Below, one piece after another: positions 21,414-50,748 of a stretch of 50,748 nucleotides of DNA; position 1 is the first letter of the stretch; every line of letters begins with the position of its first letter. The stretch is from an uncultured Thermoplasmatales archaeon (GTDB lineage Archaea > Thermoplasmatota > E2 > DHVEG-1). Under the pieces are notes generated by a model. It was not told the origin of the DNA. It was given only the letters and a program-made list of their open reading frames with translations, and did not search any database. Both the position numbers and the translations under genes were made by a program. The DNA lies in contig CAZRMY010000001.1 in the NCBI GenBank assembly GCA_964601295.1, positions 1-50,748 of the forward strand. Direction: 5' to 3'.

Positions 21414-24400
21414 ATGAAACCACGCCGAAGCTCATGTTCAAATAATACTATCCGTTTTTTTTCCGTAATTTTGATAAGTGCAATGTTTTTAAACATTGGA
21501 TTTAGTGCAATTTCAACCTTAGCACAAACACCTACCTCCACCCAACAATATACCATCTCGTTTTCCGAACCTGTTCTTTCTGAAACAAAAATCGCCAACC
21601 AAGTATTCACCCAGATCACTATCGATGATTGTATAACTCACGGGCAGACTGGCACACCAGCACTCCCTATGAAAACCATCCATGTTCTCATACCATACCA
21701 CACAAAGGTTGAACATGTGGATGCCACGCCGCTTTCCTCAAAATCGTTACCACTCAATGTGATGGATAAACCAATCATGCCACAGCAGGACCTACAACCC
21801 CTTAGTTTTACTATAGAACGACCGAAATTGCAGATGCTATCTGAGGTTTACAATTCAAAACAGCCTGTCAACCCACAATTGATCACCACTCATCATTTAA
21901 CATATTGCCGAGGATTTCCAATTTTAACCCTACAGGTACATCCAGTACAATATACACCGGGCTTAGGAACATTAGAATATTATCCAAAAATACAGATCAC
22001 GGTCCATACTACTCATCAAACTAATTATGCTGCTAACTCACCGTTACTTCGAATGAATCCTGCAGACATGTCGTTAGTAGAAAATCTTGTGATAAACCCT
22101 GAGACGCTCTCCACATATGATACTCAAGATTACCGGTTCTTATCCTCAAATGGGTTATGCAACCCTGCAGAAAATTATAGGTATGTTGTGATCACAGATG
22201 AGACATTGAACAATGCAACTGGTGAGTTATACAACTGGTCAGATTTACTTGTGCATAGAGCACAGCATAATAACCTCTCTACCACACTTGTCACTGTTGA
22301 AGAAATAAACTGTTGTCAATCATACTGGAATGACACCGAGCTGTATAATGACACGGCAGCGCATATTCGTGGATTTATCAGAGATGCATATCTGAACTGG
22401 GGTACAGAATATGTTGTGCTAGGTGGTGATAGTGATGTTGTTGCTGCTCGCATGTTTTATGTAACTGATGCTGATGGATATGCTTACCCGGATATGCCTT
22501 GTGACCTCTATTATAGTAATCTCGATGGTACCTGGCGCGATACTACTAATGATGTATGGGGCGGGGGAAAAAACAGTGATGCCAATGATTATCACGCGGA
22601 AGTATTTGTCGGTCGTATGACAGTAAGCACCGCTGCAGAATTATCCAATTTTATCGAGAAAATCATATGGTATGACACACAAGCATCAGATGAGTTCCTT
22701 AACAAGGCTGTTTTTTTCGGTGGGAATCTTGGCTGGTCTGTCACCTCAGCAGACTACATGGAAGAAATACGAACTGGAGAAGATCCACATTTCTACACAT
22801 GCACGGGATTCACCGAATACAATACTTTGCATTCTGCATATCAGTTCAATGTTTCACAATGCGTGTATTATGATCAGGGAGGAAATATTCCAACTGATTA
22901 TAAAACCATAATAAATAACAATAACGCCTGTCTGATAAACCATTTGAGCCACGGCTCGCCTACGACAGCATTAGATATGCCATTGTATCAACTTGCAAGT
23001 CTTACCAACACCAATTATTTTTTCAGCTATTCCGGACAGTGCCTATCTGGAAGGTTTACATCTGGTGATACCGCTGAGAAAAAAATTACCGCGCAATCCA
23101 ATGGACATGGCGCCTTTGCAGTCATATGGAATACGGGATACGGCTGGGCAGATACCGTTAACACAAATGGTCCTAATCAATATTTACAACGACATTTCTG
23201 GGATTATTTGTTCACACATGATACCACTGATTGGGCGTTGGGTAACGCTCATTATTACGCCAAAGATTGTATAGCCGATTATGCAGATTCAGGTGTTCAT
23301 TTTGCCTGGTGTTACAACTGGTATAGTACGCATTTATTTGGTGATCCCGCACAACTGCTTCGAGTGGCCGCCTCAGATGAAGCTATCGTTATTGACAATG
23401 AACTACCACTTGATGAAACACGTAATCTTTCAAGCGGTATAGTTGATTTATCGGTGAATGTGTCTGATCCCGAAAACGATCTTATGGACATACATTTGTA
23501 TACCAACAACTCAGGAACATGGTCCTTAATTGGGGAGAACCTCTCAGTATCAAACGGAAGGATCACCCAAAGAGTTTTTGTTTCCTCAGATAACCCGGTT
23601 TTCTGGTGGAAAGTAACCGCTTATGATAAACAAGGCTCAAGCGGATGGACCAACGCTACATATCATTTTTCATTATTGTTATACAATGAAACCCCTTCAA
23701 ATCAAGCTACCAATGTTTCAATATCTCTAAGAAATATTACTATCCAGGTGTATACTGATAATACTAGTCGATTCAACTGGACTATATCCACAACACCACA
23801 TATCGGCAATTGCACAGTTATCAATCAAACAGCGTTACATATCTCTTGCCCTCTAGCAAATTTAACCTATGCTACAACCTATAACTGGTCATTAAATATT
23901 TCTCACTACAACCACCGTAGTTGGACTAATCATACCTACTCTTTTACCACCGAGAATGCACCTGTAAATTACCCGCCACTATGCCGTAATAACTCGCCAC
24001 ATAATCAGACAACACTTGTTTCAATCGGCACTACTGCTTTGCAAATCTATATTATTGATGGGGAAAATGATGCTTTCAACTGGTCCATTGAAACATCCCC
24101 TGATATCGGCAGCAGCCACCATAACGATAGTACCAATGGCTTAAAAATCTGTAACATAACGGATTTGGACTATGAGACTACCTATACCTGGTATGTCAAC
24201 ATCACCGATACCACCACAGGTCTACAATCGAATTACTCCTATTGGTTTACCACTGAAGAAGCACCAGCTCCAAAGCCGGATCCACAACCTAAACCACGTC
24301 ACACCTATACTCCCACCATACCATCAAACACCGCTCCGCAAATCCCCCAAATAGTGGATGGTACAGAAACTGGTTACATAGATACATCATACACCATTAT

Positions 24401-25052
24401 TGTGACCACTACTGATTCAGATGAGGACGACGTTCAATACCTGGTTAACTGGGATGATGAATCAAATACTCTTTGGACTGAATTAACGCCCTCTGGCACA
24501 AACACTTCAGTAGCACATACCTGGAATGCTACCGGTGTATACAATGTAACCGTCAAAGCAAAAGATGAACACAGCACCGAAAGCAGCTGGAGTGACCCAT
24601 TCACGGTGACAATAAAAAAATCTCAGGTACCTCAGATTCCTACCGAGTCTCATCAAAAACCATCCGTAGATATTAACCAGACATCAAATGATACATTTTG
24701 CCAGTTTAATGCCTTAAATCTCACAGGCAACATGACAGAAAATGTCACCTATATCTGGGATTTTGGAGACGGAACACTGGGCACGGGCATTCAACCCGAT
24801 CATCAATATGACACCTCGGGTCTTTACCATGTAACATTAAAAACCGTAAACTTAAATGGAGATGTTATCGATGAAGTAACCTTCACTGTTACCATCAATC
24901 CGACATCTTCTCCTGCAACATACGATCCTCTTACAAGTTCATCACCAAAGGAACATGATATATTTACTGCTCCATTGTTCTATGTGTGTATTGTATTGGG
25001 TATCCTTTGTTTTACGTATGGTGGATTATGGATTCGACGTTGGAACACATAA
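21414..25052 (+). CDS. Secreted, C-terminally membrane-anchored gingipain-like (peptidase C25 family) protein with three FN3-like modules, a PKD-like module and a PKD domain
   Basis: Signal-like N-terminus. C25 propeptide-like GQTGTPALPMKTIHVLIP. C25 core: YRYVVITDE..IRGFIRDAY..YVVLGGDSDVV..CDLYYSNLDG..VFVGRM..IEKIIWYD. Candidate catalytic His in INHLSHGSP and Cys in YSGQCLSGRF. FN3-like modules at nt ~23390..24262. PKD-like module at 24327..24620. PKD domain (YIWDFGDGTLGTGIQPDHQYDTSGLYHVTL). TM helix FYVCIVLGILCFTYGGLWI. Confidence 0.8.
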   Translation: MKPRRSSCSNNTIRFFSVILISAMFLNIGFSAISTLAQTPTSTQQYTISFSEPVLSETKIANQVFTQITIDDCITHGQTGTPALPMKTIHVLIPYHTKVEHVDATPLSSKSLPLNVMDKPIMPQQDLQPLSFTIERPKLQMLSEVYNSKQPVNPQLITTHHLTYCRGFPILTLQVHPVQYTPGLGTLEYYPKIQITVHTTHQTNYAANSPLLRMNPADMSLVENLVINPETLSTYDTQDYRFLSSNGLCNPAENYRYVVITDETLNNATGELYNWSDLLVHRAQHNNLSTTLVTVEEINCCQSYWNDTELYNDTAAHIRGFIRDAYLNWGTEYVVLGGDSDVVAARMFYVTDADGYAYPDMPCDLYYSNLDGTWRDTTNDVWGGGKNSDANDYHAEVFVGRMTVSTAAELSNFIEKIIWYDTQASDEFLNKAVFFGGNLGWSVTSADYMEEIRTGEDPHFYTCTGFTEYNTLHSAYQFNVSQCVYYDQGGNIPTDYKTIINNNNACLINHLSHGSPTTALDMPLYQLASLTNTNYFFSYSGQCLSGRFTSGDTAEKKITAQSNGHGAFAVIWNTGYGWADTVNTNGPNQYLQRHFWDYLFTHDTTDWALGNAHYYAKDCIADYADSGVHFAWCYNWYSTHLFGDPAQLLRVAASDEAIVIDNELPLDETRNLSSGIVDLSVNVSDPENDLMDIHLYTNNSGTWSLIGENLSVSNGRITQRVFVSSDNPVFWWKVTAYDKQGSSGWTNATYHFSLLLYNETPSNQATNVSISLRNITIQVYTDNTSRFNWTISTTPHIGNCTVINQTALHISCPLANLTYATTYNWSLNISHYNHRSWTNHTYSFTTENAPVNYPPLCRNNSPHNQTTLVSIGTTALQIYIIDGENDAFNWSIETSPDIGSSHHNDSTNGLKICNITDLDYETTYTWYVNITDTTTGLQSNYSYWFTTEEAPAPKPDPQPKPRHTYTPTIPSNTAPQIPQIVDGTETGYIDTSYTIIVTTTDSDEDDVQYLVNWDDESNTLWTELTPSGTNTSVAHTWNATGVYNVTVKAKDEHSTESSWSDPFTVTIKKSQVPQIPTESHQKPSVDINQTSNDTFCQFNALNLTGNMTENVTYIWDFGDGTLGTGIQPDHQYDTSGLYHVTLKTVNLNGDVIDEVTFTVTINPTSSPATYDPLTSSSPKEHDIFTAPLFYVCIVLGILCFTYGGLWIRRWNT

Positions 25053-25056
25053 ACTG

Positions 25057-25064
25057 AAAAAAAA
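25057..25064 (-). terminator. Oligo-T (T8 on minus strand) terminator after the L7Ae-S28e-L24e operon
   Basis: A8 on the plus strand at 25057..25064, 17 nt downstream of the rpl24e stop. Confidence 0.45.
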
Positions 25065-25080
25065 TTGGGATTACTGGTAA

Positions 25081-25266
25081 TTAACTACTTTTTGAGTATT
25101 TTTTACTCCATCGAACTCGCCGTGGAATACGTTTAAGTTTCAACATATTTTTCTGACATTTGTTTTTACAGAAGTAAAAAACAGCACCATCTTTTTTGAC
25201 ATACAGTTTGCCGGTACCCGGTTCAATTTCGTTGCCACAAAATGAACATGTTCTCCGCTCAACCAT
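25081..25266 (-). CDS. rpl24e: 50S ribosomal protein L24e
   Basis: [40 protein letters not shown]: zinc-ribbon L24e signature, 61 aa. Confidence 0.92.
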
Positions 25267-25294
25267 TATTTCTTACACCTCATGAATTGATTTA

Positions 25295-25504
25295 CTACCG
25301 TGGTCCTCCGAGTCTTTTTGCTTCGCGTTGTGTCTCACTGAGCATGAGGATATCACCAAGGCGAACAGGCCCCATCACGTTACGGGTGATAATTTTGCCT
25401 TTGTCTCGTCCGTCGAGTACGCGGACTTTGACCTGAGATGCTTCACCTGCCATGCCGGTTCGATCGATGATTTCAACTACTTCGCATGGTGTTCCTTCGA
25501 TCAT
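25295..25504 (-). CDS. rps28e: 30S ribosomal protein S28e
   Basis: [52 protein letters not shown]: classic S28e, 69 aa. Confidence 0.92.
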
Positions 25505-25508
25505 GATT

Positions 25509-25880
25509 CTAACCTTGTTTCTGTACAGCGTTGATTTTTTTGACCATATTTTCGATGCTGTCTTTGTCTTTTCCTACGTTCATAATGGCTATAGCCGTGG
25601 TGGGAACTGTTAGGCCAGCTGCGGCACCAAGTTCCTGTTTACTTGACACATAAGTATAGGGTATCTTTTTTTCTTCGCATAGAAGTGGCATGTGTGCGAG
25701 GATTTCTTCAGGTGTTACGTCTTCGGCCATGACAAGGAGTTTTGCTTGCCCTCGTTCGACTTGTTTGGTGGCTTCGTTGGCACCCTTGCTTATTTTTCCG
25801 GAATCTCGAGCTTTTTCTACGAGTTCATAGGCTAAATCCTGCATTTCTTTTGATGCTTTGAATCGTACATACATTGCCAT
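25509..25880 (-). CDS. rpl7ae: 50S ribosomal protein L7Ae (K-turn binding protein)
   Basis: [79 protein letters not shown]. Lies 4 nt upstream of rps28e. The alternative start at M3 (25874) would suit a leaderless transcript from the TATA-like box at 25896..25906. Confidence 0.92.
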
Positions 25881-25968
25881 TGTGTCTTTTAGCCTCCTTT
25901 ATAGAGCTTTCATCGACCCAGTATGATAGGTTTGATGGGTAAGACGTACACGTTGGAATAGAGGCCCC

Positions 25969-25983
25969 CTATAAAAAGCTTTT
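25969..25983 (-). promoter_or_regulatory. Candidate BRE/TATA (AAAAGC-TTTTTATAG, minus-strand sense) for the rpl7ae operon
   Basis: Plus strand ctataaaaagctttt. This would give a ~65-nt leader. A second TATA-like box (CTCTATAAAGG, 25896..25906) is an alternative. Confidence 0.3.
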
Positions 25984-26000
25984 TAGGATGCGTGGCTGAG

Positions 26001-27119: not shown

Positions 27120-27377
27120 GGACGAGCAGTGAGGGAGAGTATGTCTGCTATTTTAAAAACCCTTGTTAATTTTGTTTAAGTGTTGTTAAAACATGTTTTT
27201 TTAATCATTTTTTTAGATAAATTTATATAGGTGTTATGGATTCGGCGGGTGCGGTGAGGAAGGGCTACCCTTTTCATGTATTTATCCCCTGAAACCCTTC
27301 TTCCCCCCTTTGATTTTAGGCCTGTAGTGTTTATCAGTACTGGCTATTTTGTATATGAAAAAGTTGGGTGTATGATG

Positions 27378-27452
27378 TGGGCCCGGAGAGATTTGAACTC
27401 TCGACCTCCCGGTTATCAGCCGGGTGCTCCAACCAATCTAAGCTACGAGCCC
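27378..27452 (-). tRNA. tRNA-Ile (anticodon GAU), CCA not encoded
   Basis: The reverse complement folds as a cloverleaf: GGGCUCG/CGGGCCC acceptor (one G-U), GCUU/GAGC D stem, CCCGG-CUGAUAA-CCGGG anticodon arm, GAGAG-UUCAAAU-CUCUC T arm, discriminator A followed by CAU. 75 nt. T5 run just downstream. Confidence 0.9.
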
Positions 27453-27622: not shown

Positions 27623-29071
27623 ATGGGCTTTGAAGGTTCTACGAGTAGATGGCTGATTGGGAGTGCAAGTATCGCTTCAGTTTTAATATTGATAGGAGCG
27701 TCTATAGTTCCACATGTTTTCGTAGATGATTCTGAGACCAGCAATACCGTTGATTTGGATGACGAGTGGGATATTATTATCCCAGATGATTATGCAAGTA
27801 TTATGGAGGCGTTTGATCATGCAATTTCAGGTGATCGTATTTTTGTGCGTAATGGCACACATCCTGTCCGCTCTCGTCTGTGGCGGTCAACCAGTGTTTC
27901 TAAACAGAATATCACCTTATGGGGCGCGGGATCACGTTCTACGATTATTGATGTGATGGGTACTCCTCTGTATTTTTCTGGTGATGCAGTCGTTTTACGC
28001 GGGTTTACCCTTCGAGGTAATAATGAAAACGGTTCGTTGTTGGTGTTATCCTACTGTCATGATTGTATGGTTGAGGATGTCTTTTTTGATATCTATGATT
28101 GGATGGATGGCAGAGAGTATGGCATTAAATGTTATGGTCTGGTTAATTTCATCTTTCGTAATAACCAAGTTTGCAATGGGGAGTATGGTTTAACTTTAGA
28201 TGGATGCCAGCATAGCTTATTTGAGCAGAATCATTTTGAACGCATAGATTACGCAGTGCGGCTTGATGAAGGATACACCAAGGACTCGCGGTTGTTACGA
28301 CCGCGGTATATTACAAAAGTACTGACCCGCAATAATATTTTTAAAAACAATTCATTCTTTAAAAATTACCAAGGTATCGCAGATTTTTATAGTATTGAAA
28401 ATCATTATATAGGAAATATTTTTGATTCCAACTGGGGTGCAGGGTTACATATCTCCAACTGCATAACCTGTACAATAGAAAAAAATAGTTTCCATAATGA
28501 TGGCTTGGAACTTGCTGGATTAGATGAAGAAGATTATCTGCATACCATCCAAGATAACATTGTGAATGATAAGCCATTGTATTACTATGTAGATGAATAT
28601 GATTTAACTGTCCCAGCCGATGCAGGATGTATCATCCTGATCAAATGTTCTCGAGCGCAGGTTCAGGGGCAAAAAATTTATAATACCACTGTTGGAGTGT
28701 TACTAGCTTTTTGTCGACATTGCATTATTTCAGAAAATGAATTTGGATACAATGATTGCGGTGTGTATCTTATGCGATCATATGAAAATACTATTAAAAA
28801 AAATAATCTCATCGGTAATACCGCTAACGCCCGTTTTGTTTGCACAAAATTTGTTAACTCCCATCGGAATAATTGGAAACAGAATTACTGGGAGAAACCA
28901 CTGGGTATACGCCCTCTGTTAAAACGTTTGCCCGTACGCATCCCCGGTCGTATATATTTAGAACGCAGATCACTTCTGTTTAACAGACTTAGATTTCGTT
29001 TATTTGGCATACCTGTGGGAAACTATGATATACGCCCCATAAAAACACCCTACTCAATACCAGTTGGGTAA
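27623..29071 (+). CDS. Membrane-anchored right-handed parallel beta-helix repeat protein (NosD/CASH-like)
   Basis: N-terminal TM (WLIGSASIASVLILIGASIV). Recurring ~22-aa beta-helix turns: NNIFKNNSFFKNYQGI, IEKNSFHNDG, ISENEFGYNDCGVYLMRSYENTIKKNNLIGN. Basic C-terminal tail. Confidence 0.55.
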   Translation: MGFEGSTSRWLIGSASIASVLILIGASIVPHVFVDDSETSNTVDLDDEWDIIIPDDYASIMEAFDHAISGDRIFVRNGTHPVRSRLWRSTSVSKQNITLWGAGSRSTIIDVMGTPLYFSGDAVVLRGFTLRGNNENGSLLVLSYCHDCMVEDVFFDIYDWMDGREYGIKCYGLVNFIFRNNQVCNGEYGLTLDGCQHSLFEQNHFERIDYAVRLDEGYTKDSRLLRPRYITKVLTRNNIFKNNSFFKNYQGIADFYSIENHYIGNIFDSNWGAGLHISNCITCTIEKNSFHNDGLELAGLDEEDYLHTIQDNIVNDKPLYYYVDEYDLTVPADAGCIILIKCSRAQVQGQKIYNTTVGVLLAFCRHCIISENEFGYNDCGVYLMRSYENTIKKNNLIGNTANARFVCTKFVNSHRNNWKQNYWEKPLGIRPLLKRLPVRIPGRIYLERRSLLFNRLRFRLFGIPVGNYDIRPIKTPYSIPVG

Positions 29072-29137: not shown

Positions 29138-30655
29138 ATGGAACTGCAGAAAATTATCAGTGAACTATCACAGCATGAAAAAAAAGTTTTACTCACACTT
29201 GAAAAACTTGGTGGAAAATCCACACCAGCAGAGATATTACAGCACGGGGATTTTACAAAACAAGTCGCTGTGATGAATGCTACATCCTGGTTACAGTCAA
29301 AGAAATTAGTAACCGTTGAAGAGCACATATCTAAGACATATGTATTAGGTAAAGAAGGTAAACAGTTTTTACAACAGGGGTTCCCTGAAAAACGTGCGTT
29401 ACGTGTTATTGCTGACCACTCTGGCTCGGCAACCTTTAGCCAGATCGGAAAAGCTCTGGATAAATCTGAAATCTCAGTTGCTATTGGATGGTTAAAACGA
29501 TATGGCTGGGTGACTATATCAAAAGATAAAGATACTGTTTTTAACTTAACGGATAAAGGTAAAAAAGCGCTTTCAAAAACTACTCCTGAAGAACAGGTGC
29601 TTAAGAATATAGATGCTGAAGCATTTGATCAATTAAATATCCCGGCGTTACACAATGTTTTATCACGAAAAAATGTGGTTAAAGAAAAAGAACGAATCTC
29701 CAGTACAATTACTCTCACGGATCTAGGAAAAAATGTGGTTAAAGAAGGCTTAGAGCTTCGTGAAGAGCTAACCCAGTTAACTAGTGAGTCCATTAAGAAT
29801 CGTAAATGGGAAGAAATGTCTATCAGACCGTATGATATTCATGCGTTTGCACCTAATATATATGGCGGTAAACCACATCCGTTGGTATATTTAATTGATG
29901 AAATTCGGCAGATTTTTTTAGAAATGGGTTTTGAAGAAATTGAAGGTCATTACGTTGAATCCGGTTTCTGGAATATGGATGCGTTATTTATCCCGCAAGA
30001 TCATCCCGCTCGGGAAATGCAGGATACCTTGTATTGTTCGCATCCTGCAAAAATGCCGATAAAGGAGACTAAGTTTGTAGAAAAAATCGCTGAGGTCCAT
30101 GAATCAGGTGGTTCAACGGGGTCCTCTGGATGGGGGTATTCTTTTTCCCGTGAGGAAGGTAAGCGTACATTGCTGAGGACGCATACCACGGTTAATACGT
30201 TACGATATCTGTATCATAACCCCAAACCTCCATGTAAGGTTTTCTCTGTTGGTCGGGTGTTTCGTAAGGAAAATATTGATACAACGCATCTTCCTGAGTT
30301 TTATCAGATTGAGGGTATAGTGCATGAAGAAGGTGCAAATTTCCGTCAGCTGTTAGGATTGCTTAAGGAGTTTTATCATAGGATGGGTTTTGAGAAAATA
30401 CGTTTTCGCCCTGGTTACTTTCCGTATACTGAACCAAGTATGGAAGTTGAGGTGTTCTGGAATGACCGATGGATGGAGCTTGGTGGATCAGGTATTTTCC
30501 GTCCTGAGGTTACTCAGCCAGTAGGGGTTACTGAACCGGTGCTTGCTTGGGGGTTAGGGTTAGAACGACTGGCGATGCTTCGGTATGATTTGACGGATAT
30601 GCGTGCGTTGTATACCAGTGATTTAGCATGGTTACGTAAACAGCCTTTGATATAA
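29138..30655 (+). CDS. pheS: Phenylalanine--tRNA ligase alpha subunit (archaeal/eukaryotic type)
   Basis: N-terminal winged-helix repeats. Class II motifs FIPQDHPAREMQDT, LLRTHTT, FRKE..D.THL.EFYQIEG, GLGLERLAM. AGGTGA 5 nt upstream of the ATG. Confidence 0.9.
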   Translation: MELQKIISELSQHEKKVLLTLEKLGGKSTPAEILQHGDFTKQVAVMNATSWLQSKKLVTVEEHISKTYVLGKEGKQFLQQGFPEKRALRVIADHSGSATFSQIGKALDKSEISVAIGWLKRYGWVTISKDKDTVFNLTDKGKKALSKTTPEEQVLKNIDAEAFDQLNIPALHNVLSRKNVVKEKERISSTITLTDLGKNVVKEGLELREELTQLTSESIKNRKWEEMSIRPYDIHAFAPNIYGGKPHPLVYLIDEIRQIFLEMGFEEIEGHYVESGFWNMDALFIPQDHPAREMQDTLYCSHPAKMPIKETKFVEKIAEVHESGGSTGSSGWGYSFSREEGKRTLLRTHTTVNTLRYLYHNPKPPCKVFSVGRVFRKENIDTTHLPEFYQIEGIVHEEGANFRQLLGLLKEFYHRMGFEKIRFRPGYFPYTEPSMEVEVFWNDRWMELGGSGIFRPEVTQPVGVTEPVLAWGLGLERLAMLRYDLTDMRALYTSDLAWLRKQPLI

Positions 30656-30702: not shown

Positions 30703-30709
30703 TTTTTTT
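30703..30709 (+). terminator. T7 run downstream of pheS (overlaps the stop codon of the convergent heliorhodopsin gene)
   Basis: ttttttt at 30703..30709, 48 nt after the pheS stop. Confidence 0.35.
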
Positions 30710-31502
30710 ATATTGGACGGAGCGTGCCAGCGTAGACCTGCCATGCAAGTGCAGATTTTGCGACAAGACTTAGGATAATATATGCCCGTTCGCCGTAAAG
30801 GTAGTCCCGCCATTTACCGATTTTTTTGTACTGCAGAACCATATTAATGGCAAATATGTTGAAGAAGATCGCAATGGATATGAAGATATAATAGACAAAG
30901 TCAGGTATGCTGCCTTCTGAGGCAATAGTTGCTCCTCCGAGATACAGGGCTATGACTACCCATGGTATGACACCTGCGAATACTCCAAAATAGTAACTTG
31001 TCCAGTTGGTTTTTTGTGTGGTCTGGTTGTGTAGCTCCATCATTAAACCAAATAGGTTCATGCAGGCGTTGATAGCAAAAATTGGGATAAGCGTTCCTAG
31101 ATCGTAGATCCCAACAAGCATGGCGATTACTACGATCATAACTGATGAGCTAAACGCATATTCGAACCATCGTGCGTAGTTGATATGTCTTTTTAGGTTT
31201 TTTACATACCAGGGGTATCCCCATGGAGACGAAAGTGAGAAGTGTGCGATAGCTGAAATAAGGAGGAACAGCGCAACTAATGGTGCAATGGTGATTTCGG
31301 CAAGAGTACTTGTTGTAAGACCAAGGCTTTGAGTCGCGGTATTGTATTCAAGGTAAGATAATGTGATTGGCAGATGAAAATCTGTGCTGAGATACAGCAT
31401 GAGACTAAACTGTATAAAATGAAAGCATCCCATGATAAAGTTGAATATACGTAAACGGTGAAAGACCAGCGGTTTTTCCATTGTCTGTTGAATGGAGGCC
31501 AT
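30708..31502 (-). CDS. Heliorhodopsin (7-TM retinal protein, inverted-topology rhodopsin family)
   Basis: 264 aa with seven hydrophobic segments. Family blocks recalled from HeR 48C12/TaHeR: FHFIQ (His28), SAIAHF (His87), RWFEYAFSSSVMIV (counterion Glu114), VLQYKKIGKWRDYLYGERAYIILSLVAKSALAWQVYAGTLRP (Schiff-base Lys249, codon AAA at 30756..30758). Confidence 0.88.
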   Translation of the reverse strand: MASIQQTMEKPLVFHRLRIFNFIMGCFHFIQFSLMLYLSTDFHLPITLSYLEYNTATQSLGLTTSTLAEITIAPLVALFLLISAIAHFSLSSPWGYPWYVKNLKRHINYARWFEYAFSSSVMIVVIAMLVGIYDLGTLIPIFAINACMNLFGLMMELHNQTTQKTNWTSYYFGVFAGVIPWVVIALYLGGATIASEGSIPDFVYYIFISIAIFFNIFAINMVLQYKKIGKWRDYLYGERAYIILSLVAKSALAWQVYAGTLRPI

Positions 31503-31523
31503 AATAGGGGATAGTATATGCAG

Positions 31524-42222: not shown

Positions 42223-42263
42223 AACAATTGACTCCCTAATAGCAATCTCACATACAATATCGG

Positions 42264-43163
42264 GTGGTATGTTTTTTGACCGATGAAAACGCTCAAAAGA
42301 AAAAAGAAGAACTCGAGCAACTCCGTAACGCCGAGAAAAAATTCCAACAACTCATTGTAAAACGTAACGAACTCAATGATATCGCCCGCGTGCTCCGTGA
42401 AGAGAGAGATATGCTTAACGCTAAACGCAAAGAACTCAGAGAAGACATGAAAAAAAACAAAAAAGAACGCGACGATATTGTCGCAAAAATGCGGAAACAC
42501 AAAGAACTCCGCAACCAGTACCAACAACAAGCCAAAGACCTCATTAGCAAAAAACAAAAACAACGCGGCAACGTCATACCAAGCCTCCCACTCAAAGCCG
42601 AAGAACTCAAAGCAGATATCCAAATGCTTGAATACCGCCAAGAAACCACACCGCTCACCCCGCAAGAGGAAAACAAACTCATAGAATCCATCAGAGATAA
42701 ACGAAAAGAATACCAACAAACTCTGAAACAACTCGAAAAACAACAAAGCATCCAAATCGATCTCACAGATACTGATCAAGCTATAACCGAATTATTCAAA
42801 AAAGCAGACGAAGAACATGAACTCGTCCAAAAATACTACCAAGAAAGCCAGAAAAAACATGAAGAATACATGAAACAAGTCCAAGAAATCTCCGTTTCAA
42901 TCAATGAATCCAATAAAAAACATGAACAATACATTGAAGTACGCAATGAAGCACAAAACTACCATAACAAAGCAACAGATATGAAATCCAAAGTCCTTTC
43001 TATCAAACAAGAAAGACGACATCGCTATAAAGAAGCCAAAAGCATCATTAAAGAACAAAATGTTAAAGCCCGCAATCTCACCGCAGATAAGAAAAAACTT
43101 GACAAACACGCCGAAGACTCTGTAGATGAATTGAAAAAAGGCAGAAAAATTACTTTGTCCTAA
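42264..43163 (+). CDS. Archaeal coiled-coil protein (COG1340-like), function unknown
   Basis: K/E/Q-rich heptad-like sequence throughout. Central EYRQETTPLTPQEENKLIESI block recalled from COG1340 proteins. The start is GTG 42264 or TTG 42276; there is no in-frame ATG nearby. Confidence 0.6.
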   Translation: MVCFLTDENAQKKKEELEQLRNAEKKFQQLIVKRNELNDIARVLREERDMLNAKRKELREDMKKNKKERDDIVAKMRKHKELRNQYQQQAKDLISKKQKQRGNVIPSLPLKAEELKADIQMLEYRQETTPLTPQEENKLIESIRDKRKEYQQTLKQLEKQQSIQIDLTDTDQAITELFKKADEEHELVQKYYQESQKKHEEYMKQVQEISVSINESNKKHEQYIEVRNEAQNYHNKATDMKSKVLSIKQERRHRYKEAKSIIKEQNVKARNLTADKKKLDKHAEDSVDELKKGRKITLS

Positions 43164-43249
43164 AACTTTCAGAGTCTCGGCATTCACCGTATTTTTAAAC
43201 AACAGCTTTAAATAGCTAACGCTAAATCCAGCCCCGTGAGGGCAGATTA

Positions 43250-44299
43250 ATGACACAAATTGGAATTGTAAGCTATGGAGCCTATATACCGCGTCTACGT
43301 ATAAAAACCGAAGAAACTGCGCTTGTTTGGGGAAAAGATGGCGCAACAATTAGCCGAGGGTTAGGTATACTGGAAAAAACTGTGCCCTCAATTGACCAGG
43401 ACACCGCGACCATCAGCGTTGAAGCCGCGCGATCAGCGCTTAAACGTTGTACAATTTCACCTGCAGATATCGGCGCGATATACATCGGAAGTGAATCACA
43501 TCCGTATGCTGTTAAACCTACGGGGACTATTGTGGGTGAAGCAATAGCTGCAACACCAGATTTAATGGTAGCAGATTTTGAATTTGCTTGTAAAGCGGGT
43601 ACCGCTGCGATACAAGTGTGTACTGCTCTGGTCAAATCAGATATGATCAAGTATGGTCTTGCAATCGGTGCAGATACTTCTCAAGCAGCACCAGGGGATG
43701 CATTAGAGTTTTCTGCTTCAGGAGGGGGAGCTGCATTTATCATTGGCAAACAAAATGTTATCGCAGAGATTAATCACACTTATTCATATACCACCGATAC
43801 TCCTGATTTCTGGCGACGGGAAGGACGTAAATATCCTGAGCATGGAGGACGATTTACCGGTGCACCCGCGTATTTCAAACATATTTCCAGTTGCGCGCAA
43901 AAACTCATGGAAAAAGCAGGGGGCACTCCTTCAGATTACCAATATGCAATATTTCATCAGCCAAACGGGAAATTCCCTGTGAATGTTGCTAAGAAACTTG
44001 GATTCTCCAAGGATCAAATCAAACAGGGGCTTCTCTGTCCATATATAGGAAACACGTATTCAGGTGCAGTTCCTATTGGTCTTGCCTCAGTATTAGATGT
44101 AGCTAAACCAGGAGATAGAATTTTTATTACCAGCTATGGTTCTGGTGCGGGGAGCGATGGTTTTGATATCACTGTTACCGATGAGATAACTAAGCTTGCT
44201 CGCGTTAATGCACCAACAGTCTCTGAACTTGTAGAAAACAAAGAATATGTCGATTATGGGACATATGCAAAATATCGTGATTTATTATATTGGGAGTGA
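43250..44299 (+). CDS. Hydroxymethylglutaryl-CoA synthase (archaeal type)
   Basis: 349 aa. [35 protein letters not shown] (active-site Cys), [15 protein letters not shown]. First gene of the thiolase/DUF35 trio. Confidence 0.88.
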
Positions 44300-44306
44300 T
44301 ACTAAA

Positions 44307-45473
44307 ATGAGAGATGTTGCGGTTGTTGGGGTTGGTATGACCCAATTTGGTGAATTATGGGATAAATCATTCAGACAACTTACTGCAGAAGCAGGAGCGA
44401 AAGCCATCTTAGATGCAGGCGTTGAAGGAAAAGAAATTGATGCTATGTATATTGGTACTATGAGCGCTGGTAGATTTGTAGGCCAAGAACATGTGGGCGC
44501 ACTTGTTGCAGATGCCAGTGGATTTGCCCATGAACACATTCCAGCAACTCGAGTGGAAGGCGCATGTGCATCAGGTGGACTTGCAATACGTGAAGGCTAT
44601 ATGTCAATAGCTGCTGGAGTTAATGATGTTGTGGTAGTTGGGGGTATTGAAAAAATGAATGATGTTGGTGGCACAGCAGCCACAGAAACCTTGGTTACTG
44701 CAGCGGATCAAGAATGGGAGGCATTTTTTGGTGCTACCTTCCCAGCTATTTATGCGATGATGGCAACCCGACATATGCATGAATATGGGACGACTCGTAA
44801 ACAACTCGCTCAGGTGGCGGTAAAAAACCATGCAAACGGTGCATTAAACCCTCACGCACAATTCAGACGAACACTCCCTCTTGAAACAGTATTAAATTCT
44901 ACGACCGTTGCTTACCCGTTAACCCTTCTTGATTGCTCACCAGTCAGCGATGGTGCTGCAGCAGTAGTGCTCTGCGCAGCTGATAAAGCCAAAAAATATT
45001 CAGATAAACCGCTTAAGATACTAGGATCTGGGCAGGCATCAGATACCTTAGCACTCCATGCACGAGATAATATAACAACTATTGATGCTACTGTACAAGC
45101 CGCTCAGATGGCATATAAACAAGCAGATATTAAACCATCAGACATACACCTTGCTGAAGTCCATGACTGCTTCACCATAGCAGAAATTGTAGCAATTGAA
45201 GACCTCGGGTTTGTCAAAAAAGGCGAAGGCGGAAAAGCAGTTGAACAACATATAACAACCTTAGACGGTACACTACCTGTTAACCCAAGTGGTGGTTTGA
45301 AAGCCAAAGGTCATCCTGTGGGCGCCACTGGCGTTGCTCAAATAGTTGAAATAGCCTATCAACTCAGAGAAGAAGCAGAGAAACGCCAGGTAAAAGATGC
45401 AACCATTGGTTTAGCACACAACGTTGGCGGATCGGGTGCCACCTGTACCGTTCACATCCTGGAGGCGATGTAA
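44307..45473 (+). CDS. Acetyl-CoA C-acetyltransferase (archaeal thiolase)
   Basis: [24 protein letters not shown] (nucleophile Cys), EVHDCFT, NPSGGL.AKGHP.GATG. I moved the start from the track's 44247 (which overlaps HMGCS) to ATG 44307, 7 nt after the HMGCS stop and preceded by GGGAG. Confidence 0.88.
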
Positions 45474-45475
45474 TC

Positions 45476-45895
45476 ATGCCAAGTGGAGTAGCACGATTCT
45501 GGCGAGAAATTCCCCAACGATATAATCTCATAGCTAACAAATGTGGTGCGTGTAATCGTATTTATTTTCCTCCACGGGAATCATGTCCATATTGCCGGCG
45601 TAAAAGTATCGGTAACATGATGGAAACCAAGCTGAGCGGAAAAGGAGAAATTTTTTCCTATACGATAATTCATGTGGCCCCTAAAAACTTTGAAAAACAG
45701 GTCCCATACGCAGTAGCGATTATCCGTTTAGATGAAGGCCCGCGGTTAACCGCTCAGATAGTCGATACTCCGTTAGAGGAAATAAAAATTGGTATGCGTG
45801 TCGAGTCAACATTCCGCCGTATCCAGGATGAAGGATATACCGGCGCGATATACTATGGTTATAAATTCAAAAAGAGCGCTGAAAACAAACCCTAA
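45476..45895 (+). CDS. DUF35 OB-fold/zinc-ribbon protein (scaffold subunit of the archaeal thiolase/HMG-CoA synthase complex)
   Basis: CGACNRIYFPPRESCPYC zinc ribbon followed by an OB-fold-like GEIFSYTIIHV..AVAIIRLDEGPRLTAQI. Starts 2 nt after the thiolase stop. Confidence 0.85.
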   Translation: MPSGVARFWREIPQRYNLIANKCGACNRIYFPPRESCPYCRRKSIGNMMETKLSGKGEIFSYTIIHVAPKNFEKQVPYAVAIIRLDEGPRLTAQIVDTPLEEIKIGMRVESTFRRIQDEGYTGAIYYGYKFKKSAENKP

Positions 45896-45908
45896 TAAAG
45901 ATTTATTT

Positions 45909-48479
45909 TTATATATCTAAAATTGTTTGGTATATACCGCCACCATAACTGCCTGCATACAACACTATCCCTTCTTTTTTATCACTTACTGCTACAGATG
46001 AGATATGTGTAACACGCATACCAGTAGGAGGGATCAACTCCCAACTCATCCCACCATCATCACTGAGATACACGCCTTCACCCCAAGTACCAGCAAACAA
46101 CACGGAACTCTCATTTTCTCTACCTAAAATTTCCAATGCCCGAACTGGTACATTTGGCATACCGGAATTAATAGAAAACCAGGTTTCACCCAAATTTATA
46201 CTCTTAAAAACACCATACTCCGTGTCAGCAATATAAATACTATCTGGGTTATCAGAATCACATACTATATCCATAATATGACCATCAGAAAAACTAACAT
46301 CGACCTCGACCCATGTTACACCGCCATTAGTGCTTTTAAATACACCATTACCATAAGTTCCGGCAAAAATCACCTCAGAATCTAAAGGATGTACCATCAG
46401 TGAAACCACATGAATCCCCTCACTTGTTAACCCTGTTTCACTCCATGTAAACCCCCCATCAATTGATTTATACACACCATTTAACGTTCCAATATACACG
46501 ATATTATCATTTAACTGATCAACAGCGATTTCTTCTACACACCTATCAAACATATCATCCAACCCAGCAACAAGATATAACCAGGATTCACCACCGTCCT
46601 CGCTTCTAAAAAACCCGCCTCCATTATTATAAGAACCAAGATATATAACGTCAGGATCACCGGGATGAAACGCAATCGCACTTATATCACCCAAGGGGAT
46701 ATCCGGGGGTACCCATCCCTGCCACTCACTCCCGCCTGTATTGCTCTTGTATAATGCACAATATCCAAACATTGCCCCACAGAAAATATTATTTGTATCA
46801 AAAGGAGAAACCATAACCTCAGTGATCAATGTAATCGGAAGACCCATCACCTCCCAGGAGACTCCTGCATCAATAGAAGAATATACCACATCAAAATGCG
46901 ACGCAAACAACCGTTCCCGATCACCTGCACTAATCTCTAAACCTATCACCCATCTATCTACCGGTTCACCAGCACTATCAAAATGATATACCGGTAGCTC
47001 TCCCAATCCACTCCACTCATCCCCACCGGTTACAGATTGAAACACCCCATCTCGAGTTCCCACGTATACATGCAAGGCATCATCATGAGTAACAACAATT
47101 GAGGACACCTGTAAAGAGGTTAGCCCCATGTTCTTCTCACTCCAACTACCACCATTTACACTCTGAAAAACACCATTAGACAAAGTTGCACAATACACCA
47201 CCGCGCACTCGACATTATTAATACGAGAAACACCTGCCGAAATATCTAACACTGCTACATCTGTAAGCCCCTCATTCATCCATGACCAGGAAGTACCGCC
47301 ATTTATACTCAGATATATCCCTGATCCTTGTACACGACCATATACTATCTCAGAATCTAATGGATCAACAATTACTTGTCTTACACCGGGGTTAACAAGA
47401 TAGTGTAACAATGACTGCCAGGTGGCACCACCATCATAGCTCACATACAAAAAATACCCATGCAATAAATCCAGGCCACAGGCATACACCGTCTGGTTGT
47501 TATTTGGATCAATCGTTATATCAATAAATTTACACGCAGAAAAATAAGGGTCCAAATGCTCTGCCTGCAATGCGATCCAACTATTCCCTCCATCATAACT
47601 TTTCAAGAGTTCATTGCCAACCCCTGCATAAAGTATCTCTGGTTTATTTGGATCTAACATCGCGGCATAACAAGCACCAGATACAAGCATTTCCCACGTA
47701 TCACCCGTATTCTGACTTTTGAATAATCCTTCTGGTAACCCACTTCCACCATTGTTACCCACATAGACTAGTTCACAATTCGTAGGATCGCTCAACAAAA
47801 CTTCTGGCCCTCCTCCTTCAAATGGCCCATATGACACCCATTCACCAGGTGGATTACAACACCAGCGAACTGGTGAGGGACTCTCAGGGATAAATACATA
47901 ATTTATCAACCAAACAACATCATCAATAGACACAGAAAAATCCCCACCGGCATCACCCAAACATAACGGATCCGGCGGCATACCTCCATTAAAAATATAG
48001 TTTATCAGAAACACAATATCACTAACATTTATCATGCCATCCCGGTTAACATCTCCACAGTCAGATTCAAAAGCATTTGATGTCAAAACAAAATCATATG
48101 TCGTGTTCTCACCAATACTTAGCAGTACCCACTCAGAAAGATATCCCAGTTTACTTACCGTGACATTTTTTAAACAATAACAGAGGGGGATATTAGTAAT
48201 ACTATAAAATCCCGATGAATCCGTAACATCTTCCTCGTACGTACCATGAAATGAAACACGAACACGGGCATCACCTATAGGGTTTAATGCGGTATCCATC
48301 ACAAAACCGGAGAGAGTGCCATTAAAACTATAGCCGTTTAAATAAACTAGTTCTGTTTCTATATCAGAACGGTTTTTATGAATAATGCAAACTTCCATAC
48401 TCATGCAAATCTGCGATGCCAAAAGTATGCAGCAAATCGTTATCACTACTACATTAAACCTCTTCCATGTTTGTATCAT
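45909..48479 (-). CDS. Secreted dockerin-bearing double beta-propeller protein with 13 BNR/Asp-box motifs (GH74/sortilin-Vps10-like fold)
   Basis: Signal anchor. CarboxypepD_reg-like block (GFVMDTALNPIGDARVRV..SGFYSITNIP). Dockerin at nt ~47890..48060 (GDVNRDGMINVSDIVFLINYIF..GDAGGDFSVSIDDVVWLINYVF). 13 S-x-(D/N)-G-G-x-(T/S/E)-W motifs. The track start (48503) is TTG; I prefer ATG 48479, preceded by GGGGGAGG with a 5-nt spacer. Confidence 0.75.
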   Translation of the reverse strand: MIQTWKRFNVVVITICCILLASQICMSMEVCIIHKNRSDIETELVYLNGYSFNGTLSGFVMDTALNPIGDARVRVSFHGTYEEDVTDSSGFYSITNIPLCYCLKNVTVSKLGYLSEWVLLSIGENTTYDFVLTSNAFESDCGDVNRDGMINVSDIVFLINYIFNGGMPPDPLCLGDAGGDFSVSIDDVVWLINYVFIPESPSPVRWCCNPPGEWVSYGPFEGGGPEVLLSDPTNCELVYVGNNGGSGLPEGLFKSQNTGDTWEMLVSGACYAAMLDPNKPEILYAGVGNELLKSYDGGNSWIALQAEHLDPYFSACKFIDITIDPNNNQTVYACGLDLLHGYFLYVSYDGGATWQSLLHYLVNPGVRQVIVDPLDSEIVYGRVQGSGIYLSINGGTSWSWMNEGLTDVAVLDISAGVSRINNVECAVVYCATLSNGVFQSVNGGSWSEKNMGLTSLQVSSIVVTHDDALHVYVGTRDGVFQSVTGGDEWSGLGELPVYHFDSAGEPVDRWVIGLEISAGDRERLFASHFDVVYSSIDAGVSWEVMGLPITLITEVMVSPFDTNNIFCGAMFGYCALYKSNTGGSEWQGWVPPDIPLGDISAIAFHPGDPDVIYLGSYNNGGGFFRSEDGGESWLYLVAGLDDMFDRCVEEIAVDQLNDNIVYIGTLNGVYKSIDGGFTWSETGLTSEGIHVVSLMVHPLDSEVIFAGTYGNGVFKSTNGGVTWVEVDVSFSDGHIMDIVCDSDNPDSIYIADTEYGVFKSINLGETWFSINSGMPNVPVRALEILGRENESSVLFAGTWGEGVYLSDDGGMSWELIPPTGMRVTHISSVAVSDKKEGIVLYAGSYGGGIYQTILDI

Positions 48480-48643
48480 GTATTCCTCCCCCGTTTCATC
48501 CAATTTTTGAATACTATATTATATTTAGATATTTAAATTTTTATTACAACTCTCGAAAATTGAAAAATTGACTAATCTATTAAATTAAAAAATATTAAAA
48601 AAAGAGAGAGTGGAGGGTAGTAAGTGACTAGGTTTCACTGTTT

Positions 48644-50748
48644 TTATGCATCGATAGGCACTGGAGAGGACCACTCTGGGCTATACACTATGAGGAGCGG
48701 GTCACCGAAGATGCATTGAACGGTGGTAACTTGCATTGATGAGCTACCATACATTGACATTGGATCTTTTGTGGTGAAATCTCTGAAATGAAGCCATACT
48801 TGTTTGGAATACGCAGGTCCTATCGGTTCTCCGTCTAGGAGTGTGTCTTTAAAGAATTCGTCGTCCTGGATGTCTGCTTCTGGGCAAAGCCCTGATCCTG
48901 CGTTACCATAGTATATAACAGCTCCATGGTCAAGATAGACCATTGGACCATATCCTTCTGCTGTGGTACATGACATGTAGAATACCGCATTGCTCATGAG
49001 GTTTTCATGGAGTTGATCAACCCATTTGTAGTGAATGATATCATAGAGTTGTGGTGGTTCTGCGTTGTACCAGGTGAATCCTCCATCTCGAGCGGTTTTT
49101 ATACTGTCATAGTCGTAACCACGCCAGGCATCCGACCAGATTTCTTCAGGATATGCACAGTATTCCTGTTGATATGGCTGTGCTGATATACCGCTTCCAC
49201 CGGTTCCATGCCCTGAGTAGTACATGATACTAGCACCTTCGTTCATTCGTTGATTATGTGCCTCCCAGAGACAGTGACCTTCGTAGGTTCTACCATGTGA
49301 ACCGAACGCTTTTTTGAGTATACGTGAGGAATACGCTGATGGTCGATCACCATTGTTAAGTGTCCATTGTCCTCCATCTGGGAAGTTCATCAGTTGTGTG
49401 GTGGTAATATCTCTATTTGGATTTGCGTAGATTAACGCAGGGTAGAGTACGTTACGTACAACCATTGCGGAGGTGTATGCGGGCGTGTTACCGGGTATAT
49501 GTCCAGCATATGAGAGATTCCCCATCATCACAGAATGCGCTTCAAGATGAATATCATCTCGTGGTGCAACAAAGACATATCCCTCTTGTCCTTCTAAATC
49601 AAGGCCATAGCTGTTACACCAGTTATAGATATCATCATGGAGTTGTTCATTCCAATATCTTTTTGCATCGAGACCAAATGGTGGGAATTCTTTGTTTTTG
49701 ATGATATTAATAAGCATCTCAAGTTTACTTGGTATAGGCTCACCTGCTACCGGTAAATGACCTGTTGAGCGTGACCCATGATAGTAATCTCCTTCTCCCA
49801 GCCGCCAGGTGTCAATCCGTTCAGCCATACCCGCAGGATTACCACTGGCTTCTCCGATGTTTAACACTGGTGAGCCATGATAGGCTGCAAGCATAGCTGC
49901 GGGTGCATAATAGCCATCACCTGTTGCAATAGAGGTTATCGTAATATAATTCTCTGAAGCGTCATACTCTTTGATATAGCTAATGATATCCTGCATGGTG
50001 GTGAGATCTGCTTCTAGAGTCGGTAGATCATCACGTACATCTGCACCAATTTCACCGTTTTCAACAAATATGACCTTACTAACACCCAACGTTGACAATG
50101 CATCTTGGGTTGCTGAAGGCACGCTATCCTTGTTAACATACAAAAGCGGTGCGTGTTCCAATGATGCGATAACTGCAGCGTTTGAAGCAGACATAACCGC
50201 ATTGCTACGATCGCTTGTTATCTTTCGAATTTCACCGGTTATATCGTATTTGATTTTATCTGGTCCTTCAACATTTCGTGGCACTACTATTGCCGTCCAC
50301 ATACCTTCATCGGGATGTAACACTTCAGCGGTCCATTCAGTATGTGGCTCAGGAATCCATTTAGTCCATGGATCAAAACCCGTGAATGATAGCCCATTCC
50401 ATTCATGGATTGGGTTTACCGGTCCAATCCAATGTGGATAAGCCACTTCACGATAATGGCCCATTGGATCAATGAGAAACACCATAAGATCTGTTGGTTC
50501 ATCTGTCTGGACTTTAACCGTTAAAACTGAATTTTGATCATTAACTCGTAGGCGATATCTATCTCCACCATATTTGGTGACACGTAAGAACCAGTTGCCT
50601 GCACCTGATGAAGCAGAGGCGCCGTACACACCCATGCAAGGAACAGGGTAGAACATATCTGTGAAACCGCCATGTCCATGATCAGGCCACCAATCCGTTG
50701 CAACAGTCATATATTTTGGTATTAGTGAATCCAATGCGGGTTCAATCC
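48644..50748 (-). CDS. Clan CD (C25-like) cysteine peptidase-domain protein with CWB2-like (cell wall binding repeat 2-like) inserts; N-terminus cut by the window edge
   Basis: The frame stays open upstream of the track's TTG (50734) to the window end (..IEPALDSLIPKY..). CWB2-like block AAVIASLEHAPLLYVNKDSVPSATQDALSTLGVSKVIFVENGEIG. Candidate catalytic His in IMYYSGHGTGGSG and Cys in AVFYMSCTTAEGYG. Confidence 0.5.
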   Translation of the reverse strand, partial: IEPALDSLIPKYMTVATDWWPDHGHGGFTDMFYPVPCMGVYGASASSGAGNWFLRVTKYGGDRYRLRVNDQNSVLTVKVQTDEPTDLMVFLIDPMGHYREVAYPHWIGPVNPIHEWNGLSFTGFDPWTKWIPEPHTEWTAEVLHPDEGMWTAIVVPRNVEGPDKIKYDITGEIRKITSDRSNAVMSASNAAVIASLEHAPLLYVNKDSVPSATQDALSTLGVSKVIFVENGEIGADVRDDLPTLEADLTTMQDIISYIKEYDASENYITITSIATGDGYYAPAAMLAAYHGSPVLNIGEASGNPAGMAERIDTWRLGEGDYYHGSRSTGHLPVAGEPIPSKLEMLINIIKNKEFPPFGLDAKRYWNEQLHDDIYNWCNSYGLDLEGQEGYVFVAPRDDIHLEAHSVMMGNLSYAGHIPGNTPAYTSAMVVRNVLYPALIYANPNRDITTTQLMNFPDGGQWTLNNGDRPSAYSSRILKKAFGSHGRTYEGHCLWEAHNQRMNEGASIMYYSGHGTGGSGISAQPYQQEYCAYPEEIWSDAWRGYDYDSIKTARDGGFTWYNAEPPQLYDIIHYKWVDQLHENLMSNAVFYMSCTTAEGYGPMVYLDHGAVIYYGNAGSGLCPEADIQDDEFFKDTLLDGEPIGPAYSKQVWLHFRDFTTKDPMSMYGSSSMQVTTVQCIFGDPLLIVYSPEWSSPVPIDA

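Follow-up and report, generated by a model that had tools for sequence, protein, structure and literature searches.

A 29-kb stretch of contig CAZRMY010000001.1 from an uncultured Thermoplasmatales archaeon (assembly GCA_964601295.1), lying within the 50,748-nt piece of DNA under study (hereafter the window), encodes four cysteine peptidases, which we refer to as P1 (21414-25052, +), P2 (32736-34352, +), P3 (36409-38904, -) and P4 (48644-50748, -). The four long open reading frames (ORFs) were confirmed at these coordinates by ORF listing and translation, and Pfam searches, aligned catalytic residues and, for P4, a structural model with sequence intermediates uphold the count given by an initial annotation of this DNA: three clan CD (C25-type) genes and one C1 gene. 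In our reading, to which we assign a probability of roughly 0.8, these are four exported peptidases that happen to be neighbours and do not make up a dedicated proteolysis locus. P1 and P3 are predicted to be gingipain-family pro-enzymes and P2 a papain-family enzyme, while P4 represents a diverged family, passed over by standard annotation, whose modelled fold is that of the gingipains. The nearest relatives of the peptidases all come from Thermoplasmatota, among them the single-cell amplified genome AB-540-F20 of MBG-D (marine benthic group D) and SG8-52-1, and by this sequence kinship the host is a Thermoplasmatota archaeon of the MBG-D/Thermoprofundales kind. Coordinates of all features are collected in Table 1.

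Results

P1 and P3 belong to the gingipain family

Residues 257-646 of P1 match positions 1-371 of the 374-position Peptidase_C25 profile (PF01364; 3.3e-42, 145.5 bits against a cut-off of 23), and Pfam matches to Propeptide_C25 (36.1 bits) and PKD were also obtained. Searched against sequences in the PDB, a profile of the P1 family retrieved Kgp (2.5e-14) and RgpB (8.5e-13) as well as the gingipain prodomains of Kgp (5mun, 6.6e-26) and RgpB (4ief_A, 1.4e-11). The same profile places H513 of P1 (HLSHGS) on the histidine of the Kgp AHGSE motif and C543 (GQCLSG) on the second cysteine of GNCCITAQFD, a placement with which a local alignment to RgpB residues 192-254 agrees. We take the gingipain dyads to be His211/Cys244 in RgpB and His444/Cys477 in Kgp. 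Among 26 homologues from archaea and bacteria, neither of these P1 residues varies. P1 is, as predicted from these matches, a canonical C25 (gingipain-family) pro-enzyme, although much more divergent than P3, its best relative being only 48% identical.

P3 likewise carries Pfam Propeptide_C25 and Peptidase_C25 matches, the latter (2e-51, 175.9 bits) falling into two stretches that flank an insert of about 157 aa. A profile built from 16 P3 orthologues aligns H628 (FSGHGS) with RgpB YTGHGS at position 211 and C689 (GGCHNS) with RgpB VACVNG at position 244, and both residues are invariant across the 16 orthologues. A plain pairwise alignment to RgpB had put forward C685 as the nucleophile; this candidate was rejected, since C685 is not conserved and C689 is both conserved and supported by the profile. 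The orthologues, named 'peptidase C25', are 58-71% identical to P3 over its full 831 aa and occur in many Thermoplasmatota metagenome-assembled genomes (MAGs); identity is 70% for the one in the MBG-D single-cell genome SCGC AB-540-F20 and 66% for the one in SG8-52-1. When P1 was compared with the P3 family by hhalign, the prodomain and first subdomain aligned, and from the second half just an NTGYGW segment, a partial alignment that results from the P3 insert. Its motifs and prodomain mark P3, too, as a putative canonical C25 (gingipain-family) pro-enzyme. The full gingipain core that the initial annotation saw in P1 and P3 is present in both, and the histidines and cysteines it quoted were the right ones.

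P2 belongs to the papain family

P2 matches Peptidase_C1 (PF00112) at 2e-36 (126.6 bits against a cut-off of 20.7), with an additional Pfam match to PKD. Its best solved relative is cathepsin C (1jqp, 2.2e-32), on whose CGSCY, NHAV and NSWG motifs the CGSCW, NHQV and NSWG of P2 align, in line with the original assignment to the papain family. Gln97, Cys103, His259 and Asn282 correspond to Gln19, Cys25, His159 and Asn175 in papain numbering. With these four residues in place, P2 is predicted to be a C1A papain-family enzyme. A Pfam search of P2 gave no match to the Inhibitor_I29 propeptide, and just ~50 aa separate the signal segment from the catalytic domain; an I29 propeptide is not obligatory for the C1A family. 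Thermoplasmatota have P2-type C1 paralogues in several copies: at least six loci were counted in one MAG, a complete 1.79-Mb chromosome has three, and the best paralogue is ~50% identical to P2.

A domain of ~95 aa that matches PDB entry 4xed recurs in P1 (24324-24596), in P2 (33948-34238) and probably at the C-terminus of the product of 34370-36373. The entry 4xed is a domain of an M14 carboxypeptidase, one that we take to come from MBG-D's single-cell genome AB-540-F20, and the module looks like a lineage-typical tail of exported enzymes.

P4 represents a diverged family with a gingipain-like modelled fold

The P4 reading frame runs off the end of the window. The family to which it belongs comprises at least 127 proteins, typically of 1200-1225 aa, named 'hypothetical' or 'PPC domain-containing'; where a taxon is given it is Thermoplasmatota, Thermoplasmata or Thermoplasmatales, and the remainder are metagenome sequences without one. 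An exhaustive search with the P4 profile against 1.84 billion cluster representatives returned 233 at E ≤ 1e-3. The family architecture consists of a signal-like segment, N-terminal PPC domains, a beta-sandwich, a CWB2-like subdomain and a caspase-like subdomain that bears the His/Cys pair.

An AlphaFold2 (AF2) model of P4, built on a 121-sequence alignment, reached a predicted local distance difference test (pLDDT) score of 93.4 and a predicted template modelling (pTM) score of 0.94. In a Foldseek search of the PDB its top matches were RgpB (1.4e-8) and Kgp (3.1e-8), followed by separases and CRISPR-associated CHAT proteases, all of clan CD, and then by the CWB2 proteins Cwp8 and Cwp6 at ~5e-4. 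The fold of P4, modelled with high confidence, is thus most like that of the gingipains. In the model His513 (SGHGTGG) stands right after strand 507-511 and Cys593 (MSCTTAEG) after strand 587-591, which is the arrangement of clan CD, and in the family alignment the histidine is kept in 22 of 24 rows and the cysteine in 21 of 23.

Sequence intermediates lead to the same place. The P4-family member P0099 scores 23.1 bits with Pfam C25 against the cut-off of 23 (profile positions 181-373), and the P4 profile retrieves P0363, P0368, P0382, P0449, P0458 and P0374 at E-values from 1e-55 to 1e-11. These distant P4 relatives clear the Pfam C25 cut-off with up to 47.8 bits over profile positions 118-374, and share their His and Cys columns with P4. 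A profile of P4 plus such intermediates aligned with the P1 family in hhalign (93% probability, E = 2.9e-7) over a stretch ending in FGDPxL, a link that emerged only once the intermediates had been added. Because the model matches RgpB and Kgp best and because the intermediates pass the Pfam C25 threshold with the same His and Cys columns, we assign P4 as a predicted divergent C25-like (clan CD) enzyme with a gingipain-like fold.

Three family members have lost catalytic residues: P0017 and P0025 carry His-to-Gln changes, P0023 Cys-to-Leu and P0025 also Cys-to-Thr. The subclade that they form, which is also present at locus L005 (see below), keeps the rest of the protein and probably consists of pseudo-peptidase paralogues.

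The CWB2-like resemblance noted at the outset is real but weak. P4 has a weak sequence match to the CWB2 protein Cwp6 (5j72, 3.9e-4), a match to Pfam CW_binding_2 (E = 0.077) was obtained for just 2 of 24 family members, and what had been described as inserts amounts to a single unit. In gingipains this place is taken by the N-terminal alpha/beta subdomain, and the CWB2-like part may be nothing more than that subdomain. The His/Cys pair first pointed out in P4 is present, and mostly conserved in the family.

Predicted export and anchoring

Signal and transmembrane (TM) segments were called by a hydrophobicity heuristic only (Kyte-Doolittle, KD, over 19-mers). The N-termini of P1-P3 combine a basic n-region with a hydrophobic 19-mer (KD 1.9-2.3), and among full-length P4 relatives a signal-like segment was found in 13 of 21, wherever the start codon was well called. 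The claim that all four proteins possess signal peptides or anchors holds for P1-P3 as far as these signal-like N-termini go, and for P4 by way of its relatives. It does not hold for anchors: among the four peptidases a C-terminal TM helix with a basic tail is confined to P1, so that the cell attachment proposed for the set applies to one of them. C-terminal TM anchors also occur in the 5124-aa protein and in a 333-aa protein of the window.

The peptidase genes lie in a variable region on a conserved backbone

The initial annotation had described the region as a concentrated extracellular proteolysis locus. The peptidase genes lie on both strands, housekeeping genes and a tRNA-Ile gene are interleaved with them, and the window's four-gene arrangement is not present in any of the six-locus comparison's first five members (L001-L005). 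For these reasons we see no operon or conserved cluster here.

Relatives share a backbone of genes for PheRS-alpha, a membrane protein of ~940 aa, DUF7121, HMGCS, thiolase, DUF35 and a P4-family protein, which in the window occupies 29138-30655, 39376-45895 and 48644-50748. In the window this backbone is broken by an insertion of ~8.7 kb (30.7-39.3 kb), whose contents are heliorhodopsin, the 333-aa protein, the C1 gene, the 667-aa protein and the C25 gene P3, and again by the dockerin/BNR gene (45909-48503). In one relative, a 564-kb contig (L004) has the P4-family gene, DUF35, thiolase, HMGCS, a 297-aa protein, a 935-aa protein and PheRS in succession, with neither the heliorhodopsin-to-P3 stretch nor the dockerin protein. 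P3 orthologues at three loci (L001-L003) stand in surroundings unrelated to this one and have no peptidase neighbours, and at L005 the P4-family gene adjoins a NosD protein only. The loose recurrence of co-location is as expected of a variable region that gathers surface-protein genes. C25 genes have been reported on putative plasmids (PMC9585477). A mobile-element or plasmid origin of the cluster was set aside, the backbone being chromosomal housekeeping (PheRS, L7Ae and the HMGCS operon).

Secreted NosD/beta-helix proteins, one of which is encoded at 27623-29071 of the window, adjoin C25-type or P4-family genes in relatives: a 1005-aa NosD-type protein lies upstream of the P3 orthologue at L002 and L003, and at L005 the protein upstream of the P4-family gene is a NosD-type one of 691 aa.

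Table 1 Peptidases, their domains and neighbouring features of the window
Feature	Coordinates	Strand	Remarks
P1	21414-25052	+	1212 aa; predicted C25 pre-pro-peptidase
P1 prodomain	21558-22022	+
P1 catalytic domain	22182-23351	+	His513 = 22950-22952, Cys543 = 23040-23042 (codons checked)
P1 Ig-like modules			Between catalytic domain and 4xed-like domain
P1 4xed-like domain	24324-24596	+
P1 PKD	24660-24893	+
P1 C-terminal TM anchor	24960-25016	+
P2	32736-34352	+	538 aa; predicted C1A; signal-like N-terminus, no C-terminal anchor
P2 catalytic domain	32964-33635	+	Gln97 33024-33026, Cys103 33042-33044, His259 33510-33512, Asn282 33579-33581 (codons checked)
P2 PKD	33693-33923	+
P2 4xed-like domain	33948-34238	+
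P3	36409-38904	-	831 aa; predicted C25 pre-pro-peptidase; no C-terminal anchor
P3 prodomain	38290-38703	-
P3 catalytic domain	36424-38277	-	His628 = 37021-37023, Cys689 = 36838-36840
P3 insert	37105-37575	-	~157 aa, interrupts catalytic domain
P4	48644-50748	-	C-terminal 700 aa of a ~1200-aa protein; N-terminus beyond window end
P4 beta-sandwich	50222-50746	-
P4 CWB2-like alpha/beta subdomain	49847-50215	-	Residues ~178-300
P4 His/Cys-bearing subdomain	48677-49609	-	His513 = 49208-49210, Cys593 = 48968-48970; ends FGDPLL
5124-aa surface protein	5720-21094	-	N-terminal signal anchor; C-terminal TM helix with basic tail
L7Ae	25509-25880		Between peptidase genes
Radical-SAM gene			Between peptidase genes
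tRNA-Ile	27377-27452		Sole RNA gene in region
NosD-type/right-handed beta-helix protein	27623-29071	+	Secreted
PheRS-alpha	29138-30655		Conserved backbone
Heliorhodopsin	30708-31502	-	Pfam 2.6e-98; 1.9e-93 to solved heliorhodopsin 6is6
667-aa secreted repeat protein	34370-36373	+	Between P2 and P3; Pfam weak PKD only; signal-like N-terminus
DUF7121 coiled-coil protein			Within 29-kb stretch; conserved backbone
HMG-CoA synthase/thiolase/DUF35 operon	43250-45895	+	Pfam; links PheRS-alpha to P4 in conserved backbone
ORF at end of that operon	45476-45895	+
864-aa secreted non-peptidase	45909-48503	-	CarboxypepD_reg, one type I dockerin, BNR/sortilin-type repeats (Pfam)

Other features of the window

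The 5124-aa protein contains CarboxypepD_reg, PKD, fn3 and CHB_HEX_C domains along with long internal repeats that have no Pfam match, and a short module, 'W.I.TSP.IGS…TYYWYVN', is common to it and the middle of P1. In the 667-aa protein about seven repeats of the 'HISYY…LKYA' type look propeller-like by eye; the protein shows no peptidase signature and no Pfam family beyond its weak C-terminal PKD/4xed-like domain. The 864-aa protein has an NCBIfam match, under the cut-off, to F510_1955-like proteins. No tandem repeats were found in the region.

Heliorhodopsin has been described in Thermoprofundales from subgroup E only, always clustered with carotenoid and DNA-repair genes (PMC9585477). The heliorhodopsin gene of the window lies instead between PheRS-alpha and the surface-protein and peptidase genes, and L004, the syntenic relative, does not have it. 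The ORFs scanned in the window include no crt or phr gene.

Discussion

Taken together, the data are best accommodated by four independently transcribed cysteine peptidases that would be exported by the Sec pathway. P1 and P3 would be zymogens of family C25, each with an inhibitory-type prodomain at its N-terminus and a caspase-like fold that bears the His/Cys dyad. P4 would be a strongly diverged member of the same structural family and P2 a C1A enzyme. Following export and removal of the prodomain, the enzymes would hydrolyse external proteins to peptides, which the cell would then import. What the data show are the families, the catalytic residues, the modelled fold of P4, the distribution and the synteny; secretion, activation, substrates and nutritional role are inferred. 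P1 would be tethered through its C-terminal TM helix, and P2, P3 and P4, having no such anchor, would probably be released or else held by their PKD, PPC or CWB2-like modules. The genes would neighbour one another since this part of the chromosome accumulates genes for surface proteins, with P4 belonging to the conserved backbone and the heliorhodopsin-C1-C25(P3) stretch forming a variable insertion.

Several observations weigh against this reading. P4 itself has no Pfam or NCBIfam match even at E ≤ 1; searches of PDB sequences with P4 alone and with its family profile yielded collagenase-type PPC domains and a weak CWB2 match only, with no peptidase, and hhalign comparison of the P4 and P3 families aligned nothing but their signal peptides. 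The AF2 model of P3, based on 16 close orthologues, was poor (pLDDT 48.2) and was not used for a fold search. The degree of conservation of P3 among its orthologues is unusual for a scavenging enzyme and could point to a more specific role. As to gene order, at one further locus (L006) two C25-type genes lie directly upstream of the P4-family gene and PheRS, making three C25-type genes side by side, and in 19 of the 80 loci that hold a C1 homologue the flanks, of up to 10 kb, include a C25-type gene. There may yet be a selective or mechanistic reason for the clustering of C25, C1 and P4 genes.

This co-location also speaks for an alternative that we judge unlikely, namely that the region is a dedicated, cell-attached proteolysis locus, in which one functional gene cluster builds a cellulosome-like surface. 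Four peptidase genes and at least seven other exported or surface proteins do fall within 45 kb, three proteins (P1, that of 5124 aa and that of 333 aa) end in a TM anchor, one type I dockerin (29.8 bits; Pfam cut-off 22.9) is encoded, and some P1 homologues elsewhere bear dockerin or cohesin domains (PF00404, PF00963). The assembly of adhesin, cohesin and dockerin parts suggested by the initial annotation finds no counterpart in the proteins themselves: none of the eleven exported or surface proteins scanned, the 5124-aa protein included, contains a cohesin, none of P1-P4 contains a dockerin, and the single dockerin belongs to the 45909-48503 protein, a non-peptidase. Mixed strands, intervening housekeeping and tRNA genes, an arrangement that relatives do not conserve and the lack of an anchor in P2, P3 and P4 tell against such a locus as well, and a cell-attached degradative surface is at present speculation.

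Some of the C25-type proteins, P3 and P4 especially, might instead process or mature the cell's own surface proteins in the manner of PorU and serve no nutritional end. We hold this to be very unlikely. It would suit the conservation of P3 over its whole length in many MAGs, the conserved place of P4-family genes by PheRS and HMGCS/thiolase, and the wealth of very large surface proteins in the window, for which processing would be required, and PorU models are indeed the best NCBIfam matches of P3 (2.1e-19). That match is partial, covering the N-terminal catalytic subdomain only and scoring 68.7 bits against a cut-off of 420; to our knowledge archaea have no type IX secretion; and by eye the surface proteins of the window have no evident C-terminal sorting motif in common. 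Prodomains of gingipain type point to zymogen proteases, and both gingipain-type activity and C25 transcripts are abundant in the sediments in which these archaea live (PMC6461988, PMC6752024). For P4 a related idea is possible, if on balance doubtful: the family could be an unrecognised, deeply diverged branch of the gingipains that merits a (sub)family of its own, maybe with a specific conserved role, such as surface-protein maturation or a new specificity, rather than scavenging. Such a role would suit the fixed position of its genes by PheRS and the mevalonate-pathway operon, the sole naming of Thermoplasmatota in this search and the inactivated paralogues met with now and then.

That P4 or other members are pseudo-peptidases, binding or structural surface proteins that keep the fold alone, is highly improbable. 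The loss of His and/or Cys in three family members, the lack of a match between P4 and any curated peptidase model, and its binding-type modules (PPC in full-length relatives, the beta-sandwich and the CWB2-like domain) speak for it, but P4 of the window keeps His513 and Cys593 in GHG and SC contexts that are conserved in most of the family, both directly after hydrophobic strands in the model, as in clan CD, and it retains the C-terminal FGDP motif.

MBG-D/Thermoprofundales are believed to feed on detrital protein through extracellular C25 and C1 peptidases, and this accounts for a sizeable share of carbon turnover in sediments; the window adds no new concept to this picture. Standard annotation with hidden Markov models (HMMs) misses the whole gingipain-like P4 family, and counts of archaeal 'C25' in sediment metagenomes are therefore probably underestimates. 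Catalytic residues and domain borders are now well defined for expression constructs. Finally, what brings the peptidase genes together is a variable region of surface-protein genes set in a conserved backbone, and not an operon.

Comparison with known systems

P1 and P3 share with the gingipains RgpB and Kgp (MEROPS C25, clan CD; 1cvr, 4rbm) the prodomain, the two-subdomain catalytic unit, the histidine of the GHG motif, the catalytic cysteine and the terminal GDPxL motif. They differ from them in their archaeal host, which has no type IX secretion system (T9SS), and in lacking a T9SS C-terminal domain; the tail of P1, with its PKD and 4xed-like modules and TM anchor, is unlike that of the gingipains, as is the ~157-aa insert between the subdomains of P3. 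P4 resembles the gingipains in its modelled fold and strand-His/strand-Cys topology, at ~11% identity in the structural alignment, but no prodomain was detected in the part within the window, and it has a helical insert and, in full-length relatives, N-terminal PPC domains. PorU, the sortase that acts in bacterial type IX secretion, is itself a C25 member and partially matches the N-terminal catalytic subdomain of P3, which has no T9SS context and possesses a gingipain-type prodomain. In the CWB2 proteins Cwp6, Cwp8 and SlpA of Clostridioides difficile, which give weak sequence and fold matches to P4 residues ~178-300, the unit is present as a triplet, whereas the part of P4 within the window has just one. 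The catalytic domain of P2 and its Gln/Cys/His/Asn residues are like those of cathepsin C (dipeptidyl peptidase I; 1jqp, 3pdf), whose exclusion domain has no Pfam match in P2; P2 instead has C-terminal PKD and 4xed-like domains.

Also close are the C25 peptidases of MBG-D/Thermoprofundales (SCGC AB-540-F20, SG8-52-1 and M9B2D), of which P3 is a 66-70% identical orthologue, although the gene juxtaposition of the window was not seen in the relatives examined. Zhou et al. listed for each Thermoprofundales MAG several extracellular peptidases of C25 and C01A that are expressed (PMC6461988), Steen et al. found that in White Oak River sediment 41-45% of the peptidase genes with a signal peptide are C25 (PMC6752024), and Liu et al. 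summarise the same view of Thermoprofundales peptidases (PMC9585477). This literature, along with the P3 orthologue in SCGC AB-540-F20, bears out the statement of the initial annotation that secreted peptidases typify protein-degrading sediment archaea. That Thermoprofundales express multiple extracellular peptidases of C25 and C01A is thus already published, and the new part of the present analysis is the assignment of the P4 family, by model and sequence intermediates, to the gingipain fold.

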